From contig CBFGKH010000007.1 in assembly GCA_965649295.1 (NCBI GenBank), forward strand, positions 96,230-160,229: a DNA stretch of 64,000 bases. The letters are read 5' to 3'. Source of the DNA: a candidate division WOR-3 bacterium. Its GTDB lineage: Bacteria; Hydrothermota; Tepidihabitantia; Tepidihabitantales; Tepidihabitantaceae. Both the position numbers and the translations under genes were made by a program. The notes beneath the pieces were generated by a model. That model was not told the DNA's origin, ran no database searches, and saw only the letters and a list, made by a program, of their open reading frames with translations. Every line of letters begins with the position of its first letter. Within the stretch, counting starts at the first letter, position 1. Positions 9,952 through 47,169 of the stretch are shown piece after piece.

Positions 9952-10791
9952 TCAGGCTGCCGGTTTGGCTGCAGCGACCTTGATGCTCGTAACGCTGGCG
10001 GCAGCCGCCCGCGGTTCATCCGCGGTCAATCCCGACTCGCGCACGAGCGCCTGCAGAGTCGGGTCGCTGGCCGGGACTTCGACCGGGAACCGGTCTTCGC
10101 CGACTACGCTGATGTCCGTGAAGCCGGCAGCGGCGATTGTGGCGAGGTAGTCGGCTTTCAGATTTGCTCCGGATATGCAGCCGACATAGGCGGCTGCCGA
10201 GTCGAGCAGGGCCGGCGGCAGGGGCGCGGTGAGAACAATGTCGGAAACGAGCAGCCGGCCACCGGGTTTGAGCACGCGCAAGGCCTCGCGGAAAACCTGC
10301 GGCTTGTCCGGCGAGAGGTTGACGACGCAGTTGGAAATCACGACGTCAATTGAGTTGTCGGCAACCGGCAGGTGTTCGATTTCACCAAGTCGGAACTCGA
10401 CGTTGGCAATGCCCGCCTTGCGGGCATTCTGCCGGGCGCGCTCGACCATCTCCGGGGTCATGTCCACGCCAATGACCTTTCCGGTCGGGCCGACCTTGCG
10501 CGCGGCGAGAAAGCAGTCAAAGCCGGCACCCGAACCAAGGTCGAGCACGGTTTCGCCCCGCTTTAGGCTGGCGAGGGCGACCGGATTGCCGCAGCCAAGC
10601 CCGAGATTCGCATCAGGCGGAACCCCGGCCAAATCCTCGTCCGAATAGCCAATCGCGCGGGCAGTTGCAGTCGGGCTACCGTTGCCGCAACAACACTTAG
10701 TCTGCGGGCCGCAGCAGGAGTCTGATTGCCGAGGTATCGAGCCGTAAGCATCGCGGACCGCCTGCTTGATATCCTTGTCGTGACCTGACAC
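9952..10791 (-). CDS. arsM: Arsenite S-adenosylmethionine methyltransferase
   Basis: LGLGCGNP, VLDLGSGAGFDC, GVDMTPEM, ISNCVVNLSPDK, YVGCISGA. Confidence 0.95.
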   Translation of the reverse strand: MSGHDKDIKQAVRDAYGSIPRQSDSCCGPQTKCCCGNGSPTATARAIGYSDEDLAGVPPDANLGLGCGNPVALASLKRGETVLDLGSGAGFDCFLAARKVGPTGKVIGVDMTPEMVERARQNARKAGIANVEFRLGEIEHLPVADNSIDVVISNCVVNLSPDKPQVFREALRVLKPGGRLLVSDIVLTAPLPPALLDSAAAYVGCISGANLKADYLATIAAAGFTDISVVGEDRFPVEVPASDPTLQALVRESGLTADEPRAAAASVTSIKVAAAKPAA

Positions 10792-11159
10792 TAGCGGTGC
10801 GCTTCCTTGGTTGAGGATGTGCTACAGCTCGTACGCTCCGAGCCTTTGGGTCGGCGGGCCGTGCAGCGACCGGGCTTGCCGGCCTTGGCCAGTTGCCGAG
10901 CCTGGTCAAGGAACTCCAGCACCGACTCATCAGCCAGCCGGTAGCGCATCCCGCGGCCGTCGCGTCGGGAGACGATGATGCCGGCCTGCTCGAGCACCGA
11001 CAGATGGTGTGACACCACCGAGAAGCTGGTTGGAAAGTGGGGGGCAAGTTCACAGACACACCGTTCGCCAGCAGCCAACAATTCAACAAGCCGCATCCGA
11101 TACTCAGAGCCGAGCGCTGCCAGATAGGCCGTTGTCAACTGCCGACTGCTGATATCCAT
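10791..11159 (-). CDS. arsR: ArsR/SmtB family repressor
   Basis: GERCVCEL..VSHHLSVLEQAGII.SRRDG; likely start is the ATG at 11159. Confidence 0.9.
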   Translation of the reverse strand: MDISSRQLTTAYLAALGSEYRMRLVELLAAGERCVCELAPHFPTSFSVVSHHLSVLEQAGIIVSRRDGRGMRYRLADESVLEFLDQARQLAKAGKPGRCTARRPKGSERTSCSTSSTKEAHR

Positions 11160-39458: not shown

Positions 39459-39614
39459 GGGACAGTCTAGTTGGAGGTGCGGCAATAGTCAATGCGGCAC
39501 AGGTCTCAGTTTGTTAAGTTATAGTAAAGCAATCTAATAGCAGTAATGTCGCACTAACGGAGAATGTCGCATTGGGTATTGACAACCGAGTCACGGCTAA
39601 CTACAATCACTTTG
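39458..39614. promoter_or_regulatory. Divergent sigma70 promoters with AATGTCGCA direct repeats
   Basis: Minus strand TTGACT-N17-TAGACT (39492-39464); plus strand TTGACA-N17-TACAAT (39579-39607); aatgtcgca at 39545 and 39563. Confidence 0.65.
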
Positions 39615-42600
39615 TGCAGCAGGCTGTTGGAAGTCTTCTGCCAGACCAGGTCGTATCCGACCGGTATCAGATTCTATCCTATCTGGGCGGAGGGGAAGCA
39701 ACTGAAGTCTATAAAGTTAGGGACTTAGTTGGTGGTAGGGTGCTGGCGCTGAAGGCGCTGCGACCTGACGCGCCTAAGGATGCTGAGCTCAGGCTGTCGC
39801 GTGAGTTCTACCATCTGTCTCGTTTCTCGCATAAAGGAATTGTCGCAGCACTCGACTACGGGTCAACTGCCGAACGCAGGCCATTCTTTACAATGGAGTT
39901 CGTAGATGGTCTGCCGATAACTTCTTTCTTTAAAAACGGTTATGAGCCCAGCTTGGTAGATGTTACTGTTGGGATACTGCGTGCGCTTGACTCGATCCAC
40001 GCGCAGGGACTGATTCACTGCGACCTGAAGCCAGCAAACATCCTTGTGACAACCGAAACCGGCGTGCCAAGTCCTAAGCTCCTTGACTTTGGTTTCGCGG
40101 AGCAGATGAGCCTGACTGCAACTGCCCAGCCACGCGGGACACTAGGCTATGTCGCGCCAGAAGTGTTTAAGGGTACTGATGCTGATGCCAGGGCAGACCT
40201 ATACTCTCTGGGTTTGGTGCTTTACGAGGTGATTACCGGGCGCGGTCCGGCCCGCGAGCGCAACCTGCGTCAATGGCTGAAGATGCAGTACCGGTCTGAT
40301 TTTGAGCCGCCCCGCAGCATTGACCCGAAGATTCCGGAGGCATTCGAGGCGGTTGTTCTTTCGTTGCTGCAGCGGGAGCCGGAGCGCCGACCCCATTCAG
40401 CAGCAGCAGTTATTGAGCTTCTGACCGGCAGGCAGGAAGAAGCTGTCATCGAGGCTGGCCCACGCAAGTACCTGATGGCGCCGGGATTTGTCGGGCGCAG
40501 TGATGAGCTGGGTGAGTTGCGCGACGCTCTTGATGCCGCAGGCCGCGGCAAGCCAGGAGCTGTCGCAGTGTCGGGCGACCGTGGTGTTGGCAAGAGCCGG
40601 CTACTGGCTGAGTTCAAGTTCCTGGCCCAGCTTGAGGGTGCGACAATTCTCTCTTGCGAGCCGGTCTCGCTTGGTGCCAGGCCGCAGTCCCTAATCGAGA
40701 CAGTTCTCAACTACCTGCGGGTCTATGCCAACACGGTGCTGCCAGTCGCTGAGGAGGGCCGAGGCGGGTCCGAGGAGAGCAAGTATCGGCTATTTGAGAC
40801 AGTCGCCCAGCGGCTGAAAGAGCTATCAGCTTCGCACCGGGTTGAGCACTCTTTGGTGCTGCTGGTTGATGACTTCGAGCTGTTTGATCCGACCAGCCTT
40901 GAGTTTCTGCGCTATCTCGTCTTCAGTCTCGAAAAGGAACGGCTGCTAGTCCTTGTCGCGGGGCTGAAGGAGAAGCGATTTCTAGACCTGATTGAGGAGT
41001 TGGGTCGGCGGCCCAACTCCCGCCACATCGCCCTGCCGCCGATGGGACGGGCCGAAGTGCGCAGTCTGGCCATTTCCCTGCTCGGCGATATTGCGGCAAT
41101 TGACAGCCTGGCAGAGTGGCTCGAAGGGACGACTGGCGGCAATCCGCTTTTCGTTATCGAGACAATCCACTCGCTCATCGAAGGGAAGATACTGACTCTG
41201 CGCGGCGGCCGCTGGGTGCTGGTCGAGGAGGCGCTCGAGTCGTACCGACCGCCGAACACAGTCACGGAGGTGGTACGCCGTCGGCTAGAGGGTCTCTCCA
41301 ATGACGAACTGGAGATTCTCCAGGTTGGTGCGGCAGCGGCTGGGCCGTTCACCCTTGAGTTCCTGCGCGCGGTTTCAGGTCTGGACGAACGCGTGCTGTT
41401 CAACGCCATTGGCCGGTTGCGGTCAATGGGTTTGTTGCGGTCTTTTGGCGGGGATGGCCAGGGACAGTTTGCTCTTTCGAGCAAGATTCTTGAGGCAGCG
41501 GTCACTGAGCGACTATCGCCCAGTGCCCGACGGGACAATCATCGTCGAGTCGCGCTGGCGATTGAGCTGCTCTATCCAGACCGGCTGGACCGGCTGGTAT
41601 TTGACCTTGCCCATCACTATACACAGGCAGGCATAACCGACCGGGCGTATAGCTACGCACTGAAGGCCGGGACAAGGGCACGCGAGTTTGGGCTGACCGA
41701 GCTTGCGCTTGGTTTCTATGAGACCGCCTTCTCACTGGCTGGACAGAGTATTACGCCGCGGGAGCGGGTAGAGCTGATTGAGAGAGTGGGTGAGCTTCGT
41801 GAGGCGACCGGCCGTTACCACGAAGCGATTGACATTTACAAGCAGGGGATGAGCATCGTTGTGGCCGAGTCATCCGCTGGCCGGCCAGCGCTGGCTCGGT
41901 TCCTACGCAAGCTCGGATTGGTCTATCAGAAACTGGGTAACCAGGAAGAGTCAATAAGCTATCTAAGTCAGGCGCTCGCCTTGCAGCGGGACAAGGTGTC
42001 GGCCGACTATGTTCACATCCTGAATGACTTGGGCTGGTCCTACAGCACCGCCGGTCAGTTGGCAAAGGCGGAGGAGGTTCTGACTCAGGCGATGCAACTG
42101 GTTGAGCGGTTGCGGTCGCAGGATGAACGGACTTACCAGCAACTCTCTGCGCGCACATTGTATAACTTCAGCGTGCAGGCCTATTCGCGGCGTGACAATG
42201 TGCTAGCTTTGCAGCTTGCCGAACGGTCGCTCGCCGCCTACGAGGCGTTGCAGGATGAGTACTACACGAGCAAAGTCAGTCAGTTCATTGCTACACTTTG
42301 GTGGCGGCGGGGTGAGTTGGGCCGAGCTCGGGCCTGTTATCAGCGTTACCTGCCAGGTCAGCGCAAGACGGGCGACGTCTATTTCCTGCTCCGTTCGCTG
42401 CAAGGACTGGGTATTATCAGTCAACAGGAAGGCGACTGGAATAGCGCCCATGACTGCTATGCCGAAGCTCTGACCCTAGCTGAGCGGATTGGGGACCGGG
42501 CAGCGATGGTTGATCTTTACTCGAATATTGGCACGACCTGCGATGAGCGGGGTGAATGGTCGGCAGCCCAGGAGCACTTCACCCGAGCGCTTGATCTTAT

Positions 42601-44842
42601 TGCCGGCGAGAAAGGTCAATCGCCAGCGCGGCGAGCCATCATCATGGCCAATCTCGCGTATCTCCGTACAAGACAGGGCGAGCTGGAAGAGGCTGAACGG
42701 CTGTTTGCCGAAGCGGAGCAACTGGCCGCAGCCGACCCTAGTGAACCTGACCTTGGGTTCTATTTGCCGCTTTATCGGGCGCATTACTTCCTGCGCGCGG
42801 AGAAGCACGACCTGTGCCGACAGGCACTGGGCCGGGCATTCGCGGCTGTGCGGCGGCGAAATGACCGGCACCAGAAGGCACTTGTTCACGTCGCTGCTGC
42901 TGAGTATCGGCTGGCCTGCGGGGAGTTTGACCGGGCCCAGCACAACGCGCTCCAGGCTTTGCTCTTGCTGGCGGAAGTCCCGACTTCACGAGAGTATGCA
43001 ATTGCCTTGCGCTGGTCAGGTCTGGCTAAGAGCCTTTTGGGCAAGCCAGAACGGGGAACGCAGGAGATCAAGCGCAGCATCGAGTTACTACGTGAGGTCG
43101 GGGCGAAGTATGACCTGGCGCTGTCACTAGTTGCTTCGGTTCAAGCTTTGGCCACTGCGGATCGGTCGGATATCACTGTGGATATGAAGATGCCGATGGC
43201 ATTCCGGCCGCTGCCCCAGCAGGAGGTAACCGAAGCGGTAGCCAACCTTAAAGAGGCACAGGTTCTCTTGCGCGGACTGGGAGCGACACTTGATGCGCGG
43301 CGGTGTGATGAGTTAATGCAGACCATCACTCAGGTCTCAGCAACGATGCAGCTCAAGTCGCGGGAACGGGGAGAGTACCTCAAGGTCTTCTATCAGCTTT
43401 CAGAGCTTATCAACCTTGGTCTCGACAAAGAGGACTTTGCCGAGCGGCTGCTCGATTTGGTAATTGATGTGACCCGAGCTGAGCGGGGACTGCTATTCTT
43501 GGTACAGAACGACAAGCTTGTGCCAGCCGCGGCCCGTAATGTTGACCGGACAACAATTGAGGACGCTGAGACGATTTCCCATTCGGTCCTGCGCAAGGTC
43601 AAACGGCGCGGTGAGCTGACCTACTCGGCGGATGCTTTGTCTGACCCACGCTTCAATACCGCTAACTCGGTGATGCTCAATAAGATACGGTCGTTGCTCT
43701 GTGTTCCGCTGCGGGTTGATTCACGGGTAATTGGCACGATCTATCTTGACTCACGGATAACTGCCCATCTCTTCTTGGAAGAGGACAAGAATCTGTTATC
43801 TTCGGTGGCCAATCTGCTGGCAGCGACAATCGATAAGTCAGTTGCGTTCAAACGTCTTCAGGAGGAGATTGAGCGGTCGAGCGAGAACATTCTTGAGGAC
43901 GCGGTAACCGGCTGCTTCCTCGGCAAGTCCAAGGCGATACGTGAGGTCTATCGGGTAATAGACCGCATCGCACCTACCGATTGCACAGTGCTGCTCACGG
44001 GTGAAACGGGCACCGGCAAGGGAGTGCTGGCTAGGTTAATTCACTCGAAGAGCGACCGGTCGGCAAAGCAGTTTGTCTCAATAAACTGCGGGGCGCTGCC
44101 CGAGCAACTCTTTGAATCAGAGCTGTTTGGCCATATCAAGGGGGCATTCACTGGTGCAGTTAGCGACAAGGAAGGGTTATTTGAGACAGCGGACGGCGGC
44201 ACGATTTTCCTCGACGAGATATCGAATACAACGCTTGGGGTGCAGGCCAAGCTTCTGGAGGTGCTCGAGGAACGGGTCATCCGTCGGGTTGGCGCGACCC
44301 AGACTCGGCACGTTGATGTGCGATTGATCTGTGCGACCAACCGCGACCTCGAGGAAGAAGTTAGGGCAGGCCGGTTTCGTGAGGACCTGTACTACCGAAT
44401 GAACGTAGTCACGATCAGGGTCCCGCCGCTGCGAGAACGGGCTGCCGACATCCCGTTGCTTGCCAACTACTTCGTCAAAAGGATTGCGGTTCAGCTCAAC
44501 AAGCCGGTAGCTGGATTTGAGGACGATGTTCTGGCCCGCTTTGCTGCCTATCCCTGGCCGGGTAATGCCAGAGAACTACTGAACGTCGTCCAACGTGCGA
44601 CAATCATGACCCAGAAGCGCCGGATTACACTGGAAGACATCGGTGACAAGTTCCAGTCGATCCAGCCAAGAACTGAACTGCCAACAACAAAGAGGAAAGT
44701 TATTGACCGACTGCAGGTTGTGAATGCACTCCGCGAGACTGGTGGCAATGTATCGAAGGCTGCGGAGTTGCTATCAATCCATCGGCGTCAGTTGCAGCGA
44801 CTAATTCGAAGGTATCGGATTGACAAGACGAATCTTGTCTAG
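39614..44842 (+). CDS. Ser/Thr kinase - STAND-type AAA ATPase - TPR - GAF - sigma54 enhancer-binding activator (Fis HTH)
   Basis: ALK, HCDLKPAN, DFG, APE; FVGR..GDRGVGKS, TGGNPLF; TPRs; GAF (SLLCVPL, GTIYLD); GETGTGK, ESELFGH, GAFTGA, FREDLYYR, WPGNAREL; GGNVSKAAELL. GTG 39614 is the likely start. Confidence 0.92.
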   Translation: MQQAVGSLLPDQVVSDRYQILSYLGGGEATEVYKVRDLVGGRVLALKALRPDAPKDAELRLSREFYHLSRFSHKGIVAALDYGSTAERRPFFTMEFVDGLPITSFFKNGYEPSLVDVTVGILRALDSIHAQGLIHCDLKPANILVTTETGVPSPKLLDFGFAEQMSLTATAQPRGTLGYVAPEVFKGTDADARADLYSLGLVLYEVITGRGPARERNLRQWLKMQYRSDFEPPRSIDPKIPEAFEAVVLSLLQREPERRPHSAAAVIELLTGRQEEAVIEAGPRKYLMAPGFVGRSDELGELRDALDAAGRGKPGAVAVSGDRGVGKSRLLAEFKFLAQLEGATILSCEPVSLGARPQSLIETVLNYLRVYANTVLPVAEEGRGGSEESKYRLFETVAQRLKELSASHRVEHSLVLLVDDFELFDPTSLEFLRYLVFSLEKERLLVLVAGLKEKRFLDLIEELGRRPNSRHIALPPMGRAEVRSLAISLLGDIAAIDSLAEWLEGTTGGNPLFVIETIHSLIEGKILTLRGGRWVLVEEALESYRPPNTVTEVVRRRLEGLSNDELEILQVGAAAAGPFTLEFLRAVSGLDERVLFNAIGRLRSMGLLRSFGGDGQGQFALSSKILEAAVTERLSPSARRDNHRRVALAIELLYPDRLDRLVFDLAHHYTQAGITDRAYSYALKAGTRAREFGLTELALGFYETAFSLAGQSITPRERVELIERVGELREATGRYHEAIDIYKQGMSIVVAESSAGRPALARFLRKLGLVYQKLGNQEESISYLSQALALQRDKVSADYVHILNDLGWSYSTAGQLAKAEEVLTQAMQLVERLRSQDERTYQQLSARTLYNFSVQAYSRRDNVLALQLAERSLAAYEALQDEYYTSKVSQFIATLWWRRGELGRARACYQRYLPGQRKTGDVYFLLRSLQGLGIISQQEGDWNSAHDCYAEALTLAERIGDRAAMVDLYSNIGTTCDERGEWSAAQEHFTRALDLIAGEKGQSPARRAIIMANLAYLRTRQGELEEAERLFAEAEQLAAADPSEPDLGFYLPLYRAHYFLRAEKHDLCRQALGRAFAAVRRRNDRHQKALVHVAAAEYRLACGEFDRAQHNALQALLLLAEVPTSREYAIALRWSGLAKSLLGKPERGTQEIKRSIELLREVGAKYDLALSLVASVQALATADRSDITVDMKMPMAFRPLPQQEVTEAVANLKEAQVLLRGLGATLDARRCDELMQTITQVSATMQLKSRERGEYLKVFYQLSELINLGLDKEDFAERLLDLVIDVTRAERGLLFLVQNDKLVPAAARNVDRTTIEDAETISHSVLRKVKRRGELTYSADALSDPRFNTANSVMLNKIRSLLCVPLRVDSRVIGTIYLDSRITAHLFLEEDKNLLSSVANLLAATIDKSVAFKRLQEEIERSSENILEDAVTGCFLGKSKAIREVYRVIDRIAPTDCTVLLTGETGTGKGVLARLIHSKSDRSAKQFVSINCGALPEQLFESELFGHIKGAFTGAVSDKEGLFETADGGTIFLDEISNTTLGVQAKLLEVLEERVIRRVGATQTRHVDVRLICATNRDLEEEVRAGRFREDLYYRMNVVTIRVPPLRERAADIPLLANYFVKRIAVQLNKPVAGFEDDVLARFAAYPWPGNARELLNVVQRATIMTQKRRITLEDIGDKFQSIQPRTELPTTKRKVIDRLQVVNALRETGGNVSKAAELLSIHRRQLQRLIRRYRIDKTNLV

Positions 44843-45010
44843 CTGAAGTCGCACGACAAAACCCATAGTTCTAAGTTACAACTAGTCTGATAGTTACTGC
44901 ATAGGCGCAGTTGTCGCGACATTTTGCGGTCGCGGGACGATGGTTGTAACAACTGCGACGCAGTCGCTTATCTATTTACTGGTATGTCGGTTAGGAGCAA
45001 ACGTCGCCAG

Positions 45011-45025
45011 TGGCACCGAACATGC
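45011..45025 (+). promoter_or_regulatory. sigma54 (-24/-12) promoter
   Basis: TGGCAC-CGAACA-TGC with exact GG-N10-GC spacing, ~170 bp downstream of the activator gene. Confidence 0.8.
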
Positions 45026-45065
45026 GTAATAGGGTGAGTCGGTAAACAGCTAAACGGAGGTACCT

Positions 45066-45128
45066 ATGCCCGTATTTGGCATACCGATCCCGCCGCGGCC
45101 GGGTCCTGTTGCGCCGCCGGTGCGGTAA
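45066..45128 (+). CDS. 20-aa proline-rich small peptide MPVFGIPIPPRPGPVAPPVR
   Basis: RBS ggagg at 45056-45060, 5 nt before the ATG; lies between the sigma54 promoter and a terminator. Confidence 0.65.
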   Translation: MPVFGIPIPPRPGPVAPPVR

Positions 45129-45171
45129 GACGCATCCCTGACGAGCGGCACTTGGGCCGCTTGTGGGCGTA

Positions 45172-45207
45172 TTCCCGGTCGGAGTTTTCTCCGACCGGGA
45201 ACTTTTT
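45172..45207 (+). terminator. Intrinsic terminator
   Basis: 13-bp perfect stem ttcccggtcggag-tttt-ctccgaccgggaa then cttttt. Confidence 0.85.
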
Positions 45208-45222
45208 GGTTAGTTAGCTGCG

Positions 45223-45250
45223 TTGACTCCTGATACGGGTAATCTATAAT
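45223..45250 (+). promoter_or_regulatory. sigma70 promoter of smpB (probably leaderless)
   Basis: TTGACT-N16-TATAAT, 8 nt before ATG 45259; no SD. Confidence 0.7.
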
Positions 45251-45258
45251 CGTTTGCT

Positions 45259-45711
45259 ATGAAAGCTGTGGCCACGAATCGTCGGGCCCTGCGTGATTAT
45301 GAGGTCTTTGAAAAAACCGAGGCCGGCATCGAACTGACCGGGACTGAGGTAAAGTCATTGCGGGCTGGTACGGTCTCGCTCGACGAAGGCTACGCCGCTA
45401 TTGAGGGTGGTCAGGCCTGGCTCTATGGGGTAAATATCGCCCCTTACGCGCAGGGCAATATCCATAACCGTGACCCCAAGCGTCGGCGCAGGTTGCTTCT
45501 CCACAAAGAAGAGATTGGTCGACTTTTCGGCCGCACCACGCTCCGCGGTTACACTCTAATACCCTTGCGCGTCTATTTCAATGATCGGGGTAGGGCTAAA
45601 GTCGAACTAGCCTTGTGTCGGGGCAGGAAGTCGGTTGACCGGCGCGAGGTGCTGCGGCGGCGGGCGATGGAGCGTGATGAGCGTCAGGAAGGAGCTGCAC
45701 GAAAGAGGTGA
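45259..45711 (+). CDS. smpB: SsrA-binding protein
   Basis: NRRALRDY, EAGIELTGTEVKSLR, RRLLLHKEEI, LIPLRVYF. Confidence 0.97.
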   Translation: MKAVATNRRALRDYEVFEKTEAGIELTGTEVKSLRAGTVSLDEGYAAIEGGQAWLYGVNIAPYAQGNIHNRDPKRRRRLLLHKEEIGRLFGRTTLRGYTLIPLRVYFNDRGRAKVELALCRGRKSVDRREVLRRRAMERDERQEGAARKR

Positions 45712-45753
45712 TGCCGGGTTTTTGTTGGTCCCGAACTGAGAAGGGAGTTTGGG

Positions 45754-47169
45754 TTGAATAGACTGGTAGCGGCTTTTGGGCTTGGAGTCGTGCTGGCCGG
45801 GATTGCGGCCGGCTCGGCTCTGCTTGTGGCTGGCAAGTCGGTACCAGTGACGACACTGGCTGGTAACGAGTATGTGGCCTTGTCCGACCTGGCAGCAGCT
45901 CTGGGCGGACGGAGTTGGCAGGTTGGCTCGCGGCTGATTCTCATCGTGCCGAGTGGAAACAGCAAGACTCCTGACAGCAGTGCTGCCGGGCCGCGCGAAG
46001 GTGAGCCGGGTAATGAGTATCTATTCCGGCTGGACTCAGCGTTTGTGCTAGCAGCCGGCCAGCGAATAGCGCTACCATTTCTGCCACTGCTGCGCGATAG
46101 TGAGGCATATGTGCCAGCAGCAGTTCTGGCCCAGTTGTTTCCGGCAGTCCCTGCTCCGCGACTGACTGGTGTTGAAAAAATGACACGGGGCGACACAACC
46201 CTGCTGCTACTGCGGGTGACAAAGCCAGCCGGATATGGCCCGCTGGTAGTCTCGGGCCGGAGTCTGTCGAGCCTGGAATATCGGCTGGTAACCGGAATCA
46301 GGTTTGATTCTAGCCTGCTGGTACTTCCGGCTGGTGGGAGTGGCATTATTCGTGCTCTCAGTATCGAACAAGGCGAACTCGTTATGGGATTCCGTCAGCC
46401 AACGTATGTTGCTGCGACCGGAAGGGATGATGGAGTTGAGGTGCGGGTGTGGCCAAGACCAGAACGTCGCTTGCAGACGATTGTGCTTGACGCTGGCCAC
46501 GGCGGCAAAGACCCGGGTGCGGTCGGTAGAGCACATGGCACGCAGGAGAAAACCATCGTTCTTGATATCGTCATGCGGCTCAAGGCCAAGCTTGAGAAAC
46601 AGGGTCTGACCGTCCTGCTGACACGGGACAGAGACTGCGATCTCGGCCTGGCGGAGCGGGCCCGGATGGCGAATAGCTCACGGGCTGACCTGTTTGTCAG
46701 TATTCATGCCAACTCTGCGCCCAACCGGACTGCCTGCGGTTTCGAGACCTATTTTCTCTCGGAGGCGAAGACTGACTGGGAGCGGGCAGTAGCGGCGCGG
46801 GAGAACGCGGGCATTGATACGATTGCCGGAGCCGATTTCGCTTCGGGCGACATCGGCCTGATTCTGGCTGACCTTGCTCAGCATGAGCATCTCTTTGAGT
46901 CGAGTGAGCTGGCAGCGCGAATTCAGGAGGCGGTCGTGCCGCACGCTCGAGTGATGGATCGGGGAGTGCGGCAGGCAAACTTCTATGTCTTGCGCAATGA
47001 CTTTATGCCCGCGGTCCTAGTTGAGTGTGGCTTTCTGTCGAACCGCAGTGAGGAGAAGCTGCTGCGTCAGCCAGCGCACCGGGAGAAACTAGCTGAGGGC
47101 ATCTGCCGTGGCATCCTTGCCTACCGTGATAGCTTTGCTCGTCGGGGCAACGGCAACGGCCGCGGGTGA
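45754..47169 (+). CDS. N-acetylmuramoyl-L-alanine amidase (Amidase_3)
   Basis: IVLDAGHGGKDPGA, FVSIHAN, GFETYFL, PAVLVECGFLSN. Confidence 0.92.
   Translation: MNRLVAAFGLGVVLAGIAAGSALLVAGKSVPVTTLAGNEYVALSDLAAALGGRSWQVGSRLILIVPSGNSKTPDSSAAGPREGEPGNEYLFRLDSAFVLAAGQRIALPFLPLLRDSEAYVPAAVLAQLFPAVPAPRLTGVEKMTRGDTTLLLLRVTKPAGYGPLVVSGRSLSSLEYRLVTGIRFDSSLLVLPAGGSGIIRALSIEQGELVMGFRQPTYVAATGRDDGVEVRVWPRPERRLQTIVLDAGHGGKDPGAVGRAHGTQEKTIVLDIVMRLKAKLEKQGLTVLLTRDRDCDLGLAERARMANSSRADLFVSIHANSAPNRTACGFETYFLSEAKTDWERAVAARENAGIDTIAGADFASGDIGLILADLAQHEHLFESSELAARIQEAVVPHARVMDRGVRQANFYVLRNDFMPAVLVECGFLSNRSEEKLLRQPAHREKLAEGICRGILAYRDSFARRGNGNGRG

Follow-up and report, generated by a model that had tools for sequence, protein, structure and literature searches.

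In the PlcR/PapR system, a regulator carrying tetratricopeptide repeats (TPRs) switches on a small peptide gene next to its own, and PapR acts on PlcR. In Streptomyces, parts of one account describe AfsS, encoded directly 3' of afsR, as a small sigma-like protein that lacks a DNA-binding domain and binds AfsR through its repeats (PMC10832544). Here we describe a locus that resembles both. It lies in a 64,000-nt stretch of DNA (the window, meaning the whole stretch analysed) from a candidate division WOR-3 bacterium (assembly GCA_965649295.1, contig CBFGKH010000007.1, positions 96,230 to 160,229). Between the gene for a giant sigma-54 activator and smpB, a gap contains a mini-gene for a 20-residue, proline-rich peptide. 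By its codon pattern this is a real, translated mini-gene, and by comparison with relatives it is a fixed companion of the kinase-STAND-TPR-GAF-sigma-54 activator across the phylum. Sigma-54 and the adjacent activator most likely drive it. The elements of the locus, including its open reading frame (ORF) and ribosome-binding site (RBS), are as follows.

39547-39553 and 39565-39571, + strand: pair of TGTCGCA sites at the 5' end of the activator gene (sequence reading)
39572-44842, + strand: activator gene (Pfam), with its stop codon at 44840-44842
44848-44967, + strand: upstream activating region with GTCGC/GCGAC-type half-sites and palindromes (sequence reading)
44848-44857, 44912-44921, 44928-44938 and 44955-44967, + strand: the palindromes and half-sites of this region (sequence reading)
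45011-45025, + strand: sigma-54-type promoter, TGGCAC-N5-ATGC, with exact GG-N10-GC spacing
45052-45066, + strand: RBS region, AAACGGAGGT and then the spacer to the A of the ATG, with GGAGG at 45056-45060
45066-45128, + strand: proline-rich ORF of 20 codons, ATG at 45066 and TAA at 45126-45128
45145-45162, + strand: small hairpin in the 3' untranslated part (computed fold)
45172-45207, + strand: intrinsic terminator, a stem-loop at 45172-45201 with 13 pairs (9 G-C) and a 4-nt loop, followed by a T run
45259-45711, + strand: smpB (Pfam SmpB, E 1.4e-52)

A preliminary description of this sequence had listed the palindromes, promoter, RBS, ORF, hairpin and terminator, together with a promoter for smpB, and all were recovered at the same positions. 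The palindrome at 44912-44921 reads TGTCGCGACA and that at 44955-44967 reads GCGAC-GCA-GTCGC (sequence reading). The mini-gene starts 224 nt past the activator stop codon, and the position of the promoter predicts a transcription start near 45037. The product of the ORF at 45066-45128 is MPVFGIPIPPRPGPVAPPVR. Eight of its 20 residues are Pro, in PP and PxP runs, and it has no signal peptide. The gene is present in a single copy in this genome; other matches to the motif are out-of-context frames. An Rfam search of positions 44000-46000 (E up to 10) returned chance-level matches only. smpB has a sigma-70-type promoter of its own, TTGACT-16-TATAAT (45223-45250; 11/12 match to consensus), which lies outside the peptide unit. 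The gap thus holds a full monocistronic unit with its own promoter, RBS and terminator, as had been proposed, and the comparison with relatives below supports this. The gene downstream of the unit varies among relatives. Given this and the strong terminator, the small ORF is not a leader peptide.

The activator has an open frame of 1,756 amino acids that begins at TTG; translation probably starts slightly further downstream. Pfam identifies a protein kinase (Pkinase), a STAND NTPase (AAA_16), a TPR array (TPR_12/TPR_MalT), a GAF domain, a sigma-54 activation domain (Sigma54_activat, E 2.1e-71) and a Fis-type helix-turn-helix (HTH_8). The kinase motifs HCD, DFG and APE, the Walker A motif GDRGVGKS and the GAFTGA motif are all intact. 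rpoN occurs once in the genome (PF04552 at G000:C1:358265-358720, 161.7 bits; G000 is the genome carrying the window, C1 and C2 are its contigs, and L and G numbers denote loci and genomes). The solved structures nearest by sequence to the TPR array are kinesin light chain, LGN/Pins and OGT, all peptide-binding TPRs. A complex prediction for the TPR region of the L011 orthologue with its 47-residue mature peptide, run without controls, scored 0.09 against a mark of 0.32 and gives no verdict. Separately, a contig from a metagenome-assembled genome labelled Deferribacteres (L047) encodes a 1,740-residue protein of similar build with an altered GAFTGA region. On its 3' side stand three TGCAC-N8-GTGCA palindromes and a TGGTAT-N5-TTGC promoter, then a gene whose product begins with a signal peptide and whose sequence is cut by the contig end.

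In its core, the activator resembles enhancer-binding proteins of the NifA, NorR and FhlA type, with a GAF domain, a sigma-54 AAA+ domain bearing GAFTGA and a Fis-type helix-turn-helix. Sites placed some 50-150 nt ahead of a GG-N10-GC promoter are also of that type. About 1,270 extra N-terminal residues (kinase, STAND and TPR) set it apart. The use of a very short dedicated transcript as a sigma-54 target is reminiscent of Qrr under LuxO, but the target here encodes a conserved peptide, not an enzyme operon or a purely non-coding RNA. With RRNPP systems such as PlcR/PapR, the locus shares a cytoplasmic TPR-bearing regulator and an adjacent small peptide gene. It differs in the receptor, which is an enhancer-binding protein of ~1,750 residues with a kinase-STAND-TPR-GAF-sigma-54 build and not a TPR array joined directly to a helix-turn-helix or phosphatase output. 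It differs also in the window peptide, which lacks an export signal, and in the lineage, an uncultured phylum outside the Firmicutes.

The AfsK/AfsR/AfsS system comes close in other respects. As described in parts of the same account, a STAND NTPase and TPR transcription activator stands under Ser/Thr-kinase control, a very small gene lies immediately 3' of the activator gene, and its product consists of short repeated units with poor conservation outside them (PMC10832544); these have counterparts here, the repeated units in some relatives and a single unit in the window. However, the kinase is here fused to the regulator, a GAF domain is added, and the output is a sigma-54 AAA+ domain with a Fis-type helix-turn-helix, not an N-terminal SARP domain. 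Pfam gave no match to SARP or Trans_reg_C/BTAD in the activator, whose output part is Sigma54_activat plus HTH_8. The unit here is also Pro-rich and Sec-exported in many lineages, and the likeness to AfsS is one of description, not of sequence comparison (PMC10832544, in part). Since the defining architectures of RRNPP and SARP regulators are both absent, the regulator-peptide pair is a member of neither family. The kind of system is a regulator with an adjacent partner peptide, and this sigma-54 pair appears to be new. A full-text literature search, with subscription journals outside its coverage, returned no description of such a sigma-54 regulator-peptide system.

Conservation carries the case for the unit. 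Full-length activator orthologues, with open frames of 1,743-1,805 amino acids, are present in 26 of the 41 genomes of an order-level sample, and contig-cut pieces in four further genomes. A Pro-rich small ORF lies 3' of the activator at every order-level locus with a readable flank (28/28). Twenty-four of these ORFs were found by script, and those of L007, L010, L012 and L030 by eye and then by a looser filter. The loci share a layout: GTGCGACA/TGTCGCA-type sites, one to four in number, precede a GG-N10-GC promoter, after which come a strong RBS, in many cases AAACGGAGGT, and the Pro-rich ORF. In the relatives inspected, a hairpin and T run usually follow (judged by eye, uncounted). The preliminary description had suggested looking beside homologous activators for promoter, RBS and Pro-rich ORF, and all three are conserved there. 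The unit stands farther from the activator stop codon in L002, after an insertion, and in L009 and L030 (~620 nt downstream). In other families of the phylum, where the activator is matched at E 1e-98 to 1e-175, a Pro-rich small ORF follows it in 10 of 12 loci; of the remaining two, L065 runs into a contig end and L069 gives no clear picture. Both the unit as a whole and the core of the peptide persist across genera with GC-rich and AT-rich DNA.

The promoter motif by itself is not convincing: the 2.28-Mb genome contains TGGCAC-N5-NTGC 47 times, a number not beyond chance. It is the conservation of the unit that lifts the motif above chance. A -24/-12 score of at least 15/16 was reached within 130 nt upstream of the small ORF in 24 of 44 orthologous loci, versus only 1.2% of 4,380 random 130-nt windows from the same loci. 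The scoring script took the wrong ORF in L077 and met a weak promoter in L013, and both were left as scored. In most loci the promoter lies 28-60 nt before the start codon. The conserved promoter, the presence of rpoN and the intact GAFTGA motif all point to sigma-54 and the adjacent activator as the most likely driver, in keeping with the original proposal.

The ORF shows the pattern of a coding sequence. We compared 42 distinct 14-codon units from 30 loci. Over the nine-codon core, summed entropy was 6.0 bits at the first codon position, 6.3 at the second and 14.9 at the third. Three Pro codons never vary in their first two letters but have 1.7-1.8 bits at the third. The conserved core, ΦPxxPxPxP, is thus held at the amino-acid level with third positions free, a pattern that a role of the RNA alone leaves unexplained. 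Strain variation agrees. Two variants of the locus, taken from assembled contigs of public runs, differ from it at 19 and 32 of 901 positions. Within the ORF, the changes are synonymous in the core (45104 and 45107) and conservative in the tail (V15I and V19A). The GG, the GC and the RBS are unchanged in both. The earlier claim that the ORF is a real coding gene is borne out by the codon-position entropy and by these synonymous changes. The nearest variants come from runs labelled hot-spring metagenomes in two studies, and the organism is uncultured. No RNA run was listed as containing the locus. Outside the ORF, strains vary in the terminator loop (45185) while the stem is invariant, and the X2/X3 variant has lost 4 nt at 45209-45212 and carries several substitutions in the stretch from the terminator to the smpB promoter.

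The same unit recurs in relatives in two forms. ΦPxxPxPxP is usually preceded by Asp-Gly. In the family of the window organism, most genes are leaderless and encode 16-21 residues, that is, one unit after the initiator Met. In seven loci from distinct genomes (L003, L010, L011, L019, L020, L028 and L037), the gene encodes a Sec signal peptide and then 2-5 units in tandem, with short hydrophobic-Ala-Asp-Gly linkers between them. L061 is a leaderless gene with two units. One genome, G221, has two tandem leaderless peptide genes, each with its own RBS (L034/L073); the copies differ only in their last residues and at one synonymous core position. In other families of the phylum, the partner is a 46-61-residue protein that begins with a signal peptide and ends in a single short, Pro-rich part (10 of 12 loci). 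This format resembles that of PapR, with its signal peptide and short C-terminal active part. When the two forms, exported and leaderless, are mapped on a tree of 20 activators, three changes of label are needed, at least two of which are forced by well-supported branches. Since the peptide is exported in other lineages and the label switches on the tree, the window 20-mer corresponds to a version with the mature part only.

Similarity searches with the peptides were uninformative. Fifteen peptide forms searched against Pfam and NCBIfam gave nothing above any cut-off. A protein homologue search with the 90-residue exported L028 form gave one uninformative match, and an ESM Atlas search with one exported form gave a best score of 0.75, which is unusable. 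The window peptide has two Arg among its 20 residues; most orthologues carry a single Asp together with a single Arg or Lys, or lack them. PPPP stretches occur in the peptides of some relatives. We also looked for peptide importers in five genomes. An OppA-type binding protein (PF00496) was found in G266 only, an apparent further difference from RRNPP systems; it was not found in G000, G014, G025 or G268, which leaves room for importers of other types. SbmA was absent from the search results of all five (0/5).

The sites upstream of the promoter point to the activator itself. In 15 of 20 orthologous activator genes, two or more TGTCGCA 7-mers fall within -350..+120; every one of the 20 has at least one there, against a background in activator gene bodies of 0.11 per 470 nt. 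The pair just before the activator gene is spaced 18-21 nt. Upstream of the peptide promoter, at the same place as in the window, relatives carry clearer GTGCGACA/TGTCGCA (TGCGACA) sites. In the window, six GTCGC/GCGAC words lie 30-190 nt upstream of this promoter, the highest number among 69 genomic sigma-54-like sites; the next highest is three. From these patterns we infer that TGTCGCA is the activator's own binding site, acting as an operator where it precedes the activator gene and as an enhancer where it precedes the peptide gene. The pair at 39547-39571 would then probably be an autoregulatory operator.

TGTCGCA pairs within 80 nt occur five times in this genome, with 2.7 expected. One is at the 5' end of the activator gene, and two lie in gene-poor gaps on C1, each with a minus-strand promoter-like site reading TGGCACGAC-N2-GATGC. 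The other two were rejected as targets because they lie inside coding sequence. A TGCGACA pair at C2:7265 was rejected because it sits at the start of a lipoprotein gene. The strict pattern of two sites plus promoter had one other genomic match, inside uvrA, which was rejected as chance. At C1:292478 (minus strand; L089), about 900 nt of gene-poor sequence hold a promoter-like site nearly identical to the one at C1:10763, with TGTCGCA/TGCGACA upstream; no homologue was found among 40 relatives. The site at C1:10763 itself heads a conserved element.

C1 about 10080-10860, minus strand: conserved non-coding stretch of roughly 660 nt (locus L088, C1:9600-11200)

This RNA is preceded by the sigma-54-type promoter-like site at C1:10763 (minus strand) and two TGTCGCA sites. 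Its predicted start lies about 12 nt beyond C1:10749 on that strand. BLAST finds it in 13 of 41 relatives and in 20 of 66 genomes of the order (its relatives are L091-L099 and L103-L115). Within its 3' domain, a near-invariant 27-nt block was found in 17 of 272 genomes of the phylum, each of which belongs to family f1 or f2. Anchored by script on this block, a sigma-54-type promoter stands ~440-600 nt before it in 12 of 14 RNA loci, with at least one TGTCGCA site further upstream in 13 of 14. The sole recurring ORF on the opposite strand is not conserved, and the RNA matched no Rfam family. RNase P RNA, 6S RNA and tmRNA were rejected as its identity because each was located elsewhere in the genome. 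RNAalifold predicts a 12-bp hairpin in the 5' part, two pairs of which show compensatory change, and 26 pairs in the 3' domain, six of them changed on both sides. A mixed alignment of GC-rich and AT-rich 5' parts gave no structure.

The loop enclosed by the 5' hairpin contains a perfect 15-nt complement of window positions 45052-45066, from the RBS to the A of the start codon. About 0.3 antisense genomic matches of 15 nt to the ~170-nt transcript are expected by chance (an estimate). The match is of interest because it falls in a hairpin loop of a transcript with the same site and promoter type. For 11 genomes, duplexes were computed by pairing the 5' region of every peptide gene with the first 120 nt of every RNA. 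Out of 11, the genome's own partner ranked first in G000 and G018, second in G005 and G004 and third in G009 and G019. By eye, the spacer between Shine-Dalgarno sequence and AUG varies among genomes in step with the RNA loop. In G014, where the loop is deleted, and in G003, G025, G001 and G002, the own pair was no better than a reversed-sequence control. That the co-regulated RNA masks the peptide RBS is a candidate function that we entertain only tentatively.

A wider regulon is also visible in family f43 (loci L062-L064, L067, L071 and L080-L086; genomes G265, G266, G268, G269 and G271). In this family, the enhancer consists of three 19-bp palindromes (GTGTAA-N7-TTACAC). It occurs 3, 3, 9, 13 and 10 times in five genomes, versus 0, 0, 0, 1 and 0 times for a reversed control. 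Six further modules carry the same TGACAC-N5-TTGC promoter-like element, in which the -24 'GG' is 'GA'. They precede a receiver-domain gene and several genes with signal-peptide- or lipoprotein-like starts, judged by eye with no family search. A palindromic box repeated before several regulon genes is also a feature of PlcR. The preliminary description had called the peptide the only visible output of the regulator. This is not supported, given the same site and promoter type before the ~660-nt RNA and the f43 enhancer before other genes; by these patterns, the peptide is probably not the sole target.

These observations can be joined in one working model. The activator would bind TGTCGCA-type sites both before its own gene and ahead of the peptide promoter and, with sigma-54, transcribe a ~170-nt mRNA for the 20-residue peptide. 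The window peptide would be a leaderless single copy of the unit that other lineages make behind a Sec signal peptide, often in tandem. It may then act back on the regulator as a partner, probably through the peptide-binding-type TPR array, with the ~660-nt RNA as a possible extra layer that masks the RBS. Because the window peptide lacks an export signal, such a feedback loop would be cell-autonomous in this genome. The regulator is the only constant companion of the peptide gene, its TPRs are of a suitable type and leaderless and exported forms swap; the simplest account of this is that the peptide's partner is the regulator. Feedback on the regulator may therefore be the likeliest role for the peptide, a judgement we hold with limited confidence. 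We give the model as a whole, a sigma-54 unit with a peptide feeding back on its regulator, a little less than an even chance. The fullest combination, a circuit with PlcR/PapR logic outside the Firmicutes in which the receptor is a ~1,750-residue sigma-54 enhancer-binding protein, the export signal has been lost and the feedback peptide is checked by the ~660-nt RNA, is unlikely to be right in every part.

Several observations weigh against this model. The -12 element in the window is ATGC, not TTGC. The window sites before the peptide promoter are degenerate forms (GTCGC/GCGAC words) of the motif seen in relatives. The f43 enhancer modules before other genes mean that the peptide could be one output among several. 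The pairing of the RBS with the RNA loop is upheld in only about six of 11 genome pairs, and three g8 genomes (G024, G016 and G007) have the same RBS context, yet the ~660-nt RNA was not found there. Finally, with an OppA-type protein in one of five genomes and SbmA in none, an outward-acting product fits better than a re-imported signal.

That last point bears on the strongest rival, in which the peptide is output only and does not feed back on the regulator. It would be exported or act on the envelope, for instance as a signal to other cells, as part of the surface or matrix, or as a peptide aimed at competitors. The leaderless form would then exit by another route or work from inside. Most phylum-level orthologues have a classic Sec signal peptide, tandem units with hydrophobic-Ala-Asp-Gly linkers resemble a multi-copy precursor, and the f43 modules precede genes with signal-peptide- or lipoprotein-like N-termini. 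An Opp or SbmA importer was not found in most of the five genomes searched, and this explanation stays strong. However, leaderless forms of 16-21 residues are common, equally constrained and too polar and short to cross a membrane unaided, and the regulator alone always accompanies the peptide gene while flanking genes differ. We consider an output-only product possible, if somewhat doubtful. Alternatively, the transcript could act as a small RNA or decoy that pairs with the loop of the ~660-nt RNA, the peptide being secondary. The perfect 15-nt complement at the RBS, the best or near-best own-partner duplexes in six genomes (G000, G018, G009, G005, G019 and G004) and the site and promoter type common to both loci are what such a role would predict. 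Yet the ORF is constrained at the amino-acid level with free wobble positions, five of the 11 genome pairs show no complementarity, and the large RNA is limited to two families while the peptide gene is phylum-wide. A primary role for the RNA is accordingly improbable.

Two further explanations fare worse. The preliminary description had raised a translation-arresting dormancy or defence effector that binds the ribosomal tunnel like a proline-rich antimicrobial peptide, to which may be added a poly-proline ORF that senses EF-P or proline supply. The PP and PxP runs invite this idea, as do the PPPP stretches in some relatives, since PPPP stretches require EF-P for translation. Bac7, oncocin and apidaecin, though, are strongly cationic, with Arg-rich PRP repeats, a character that the window peptide does not have. 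Orthologues are mostly neutral, with one Asp and one Arg or Lys, many are Sec-exported, and none of the forms searched has Pfam or NCBIfam similarity. The near-neutral orthologues, the frequent export and the terminator directly after the ORF make the idea fit poorly, and we regard it as very unlikely. The gap could, at the extreme, be no more than the activator's 3' untranslated region with a terminator and a fortuitous promoter-like motif. The near-chance frequency of the -24/-12 motif genome-wide would allow this, whereas conservation of the unit and peptide core across GC-rich and AT-rich genera leaves a chance ORF scarcely credible.

The mini-gene is a phylum-wide gene of a length that ordinary gene calling is likely to miss. 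With it, a giant multi-input sigma-54 regulator gains a concrete target. The ~660-nt RNA is large, matches no known family and has both a defined promoter and a candidate target; it is worth study in itself. If the peptide does act back on the regulator, the logic of a regulator with a partner peptide would reach sigma-54 enhancer-binding proteins as well, and a lineage not yet in culture. The repeated alternation of exported multi-copy with leaderless single-copy forms would in that case amount to a natural experiment, in which a shared signal has been turned private.

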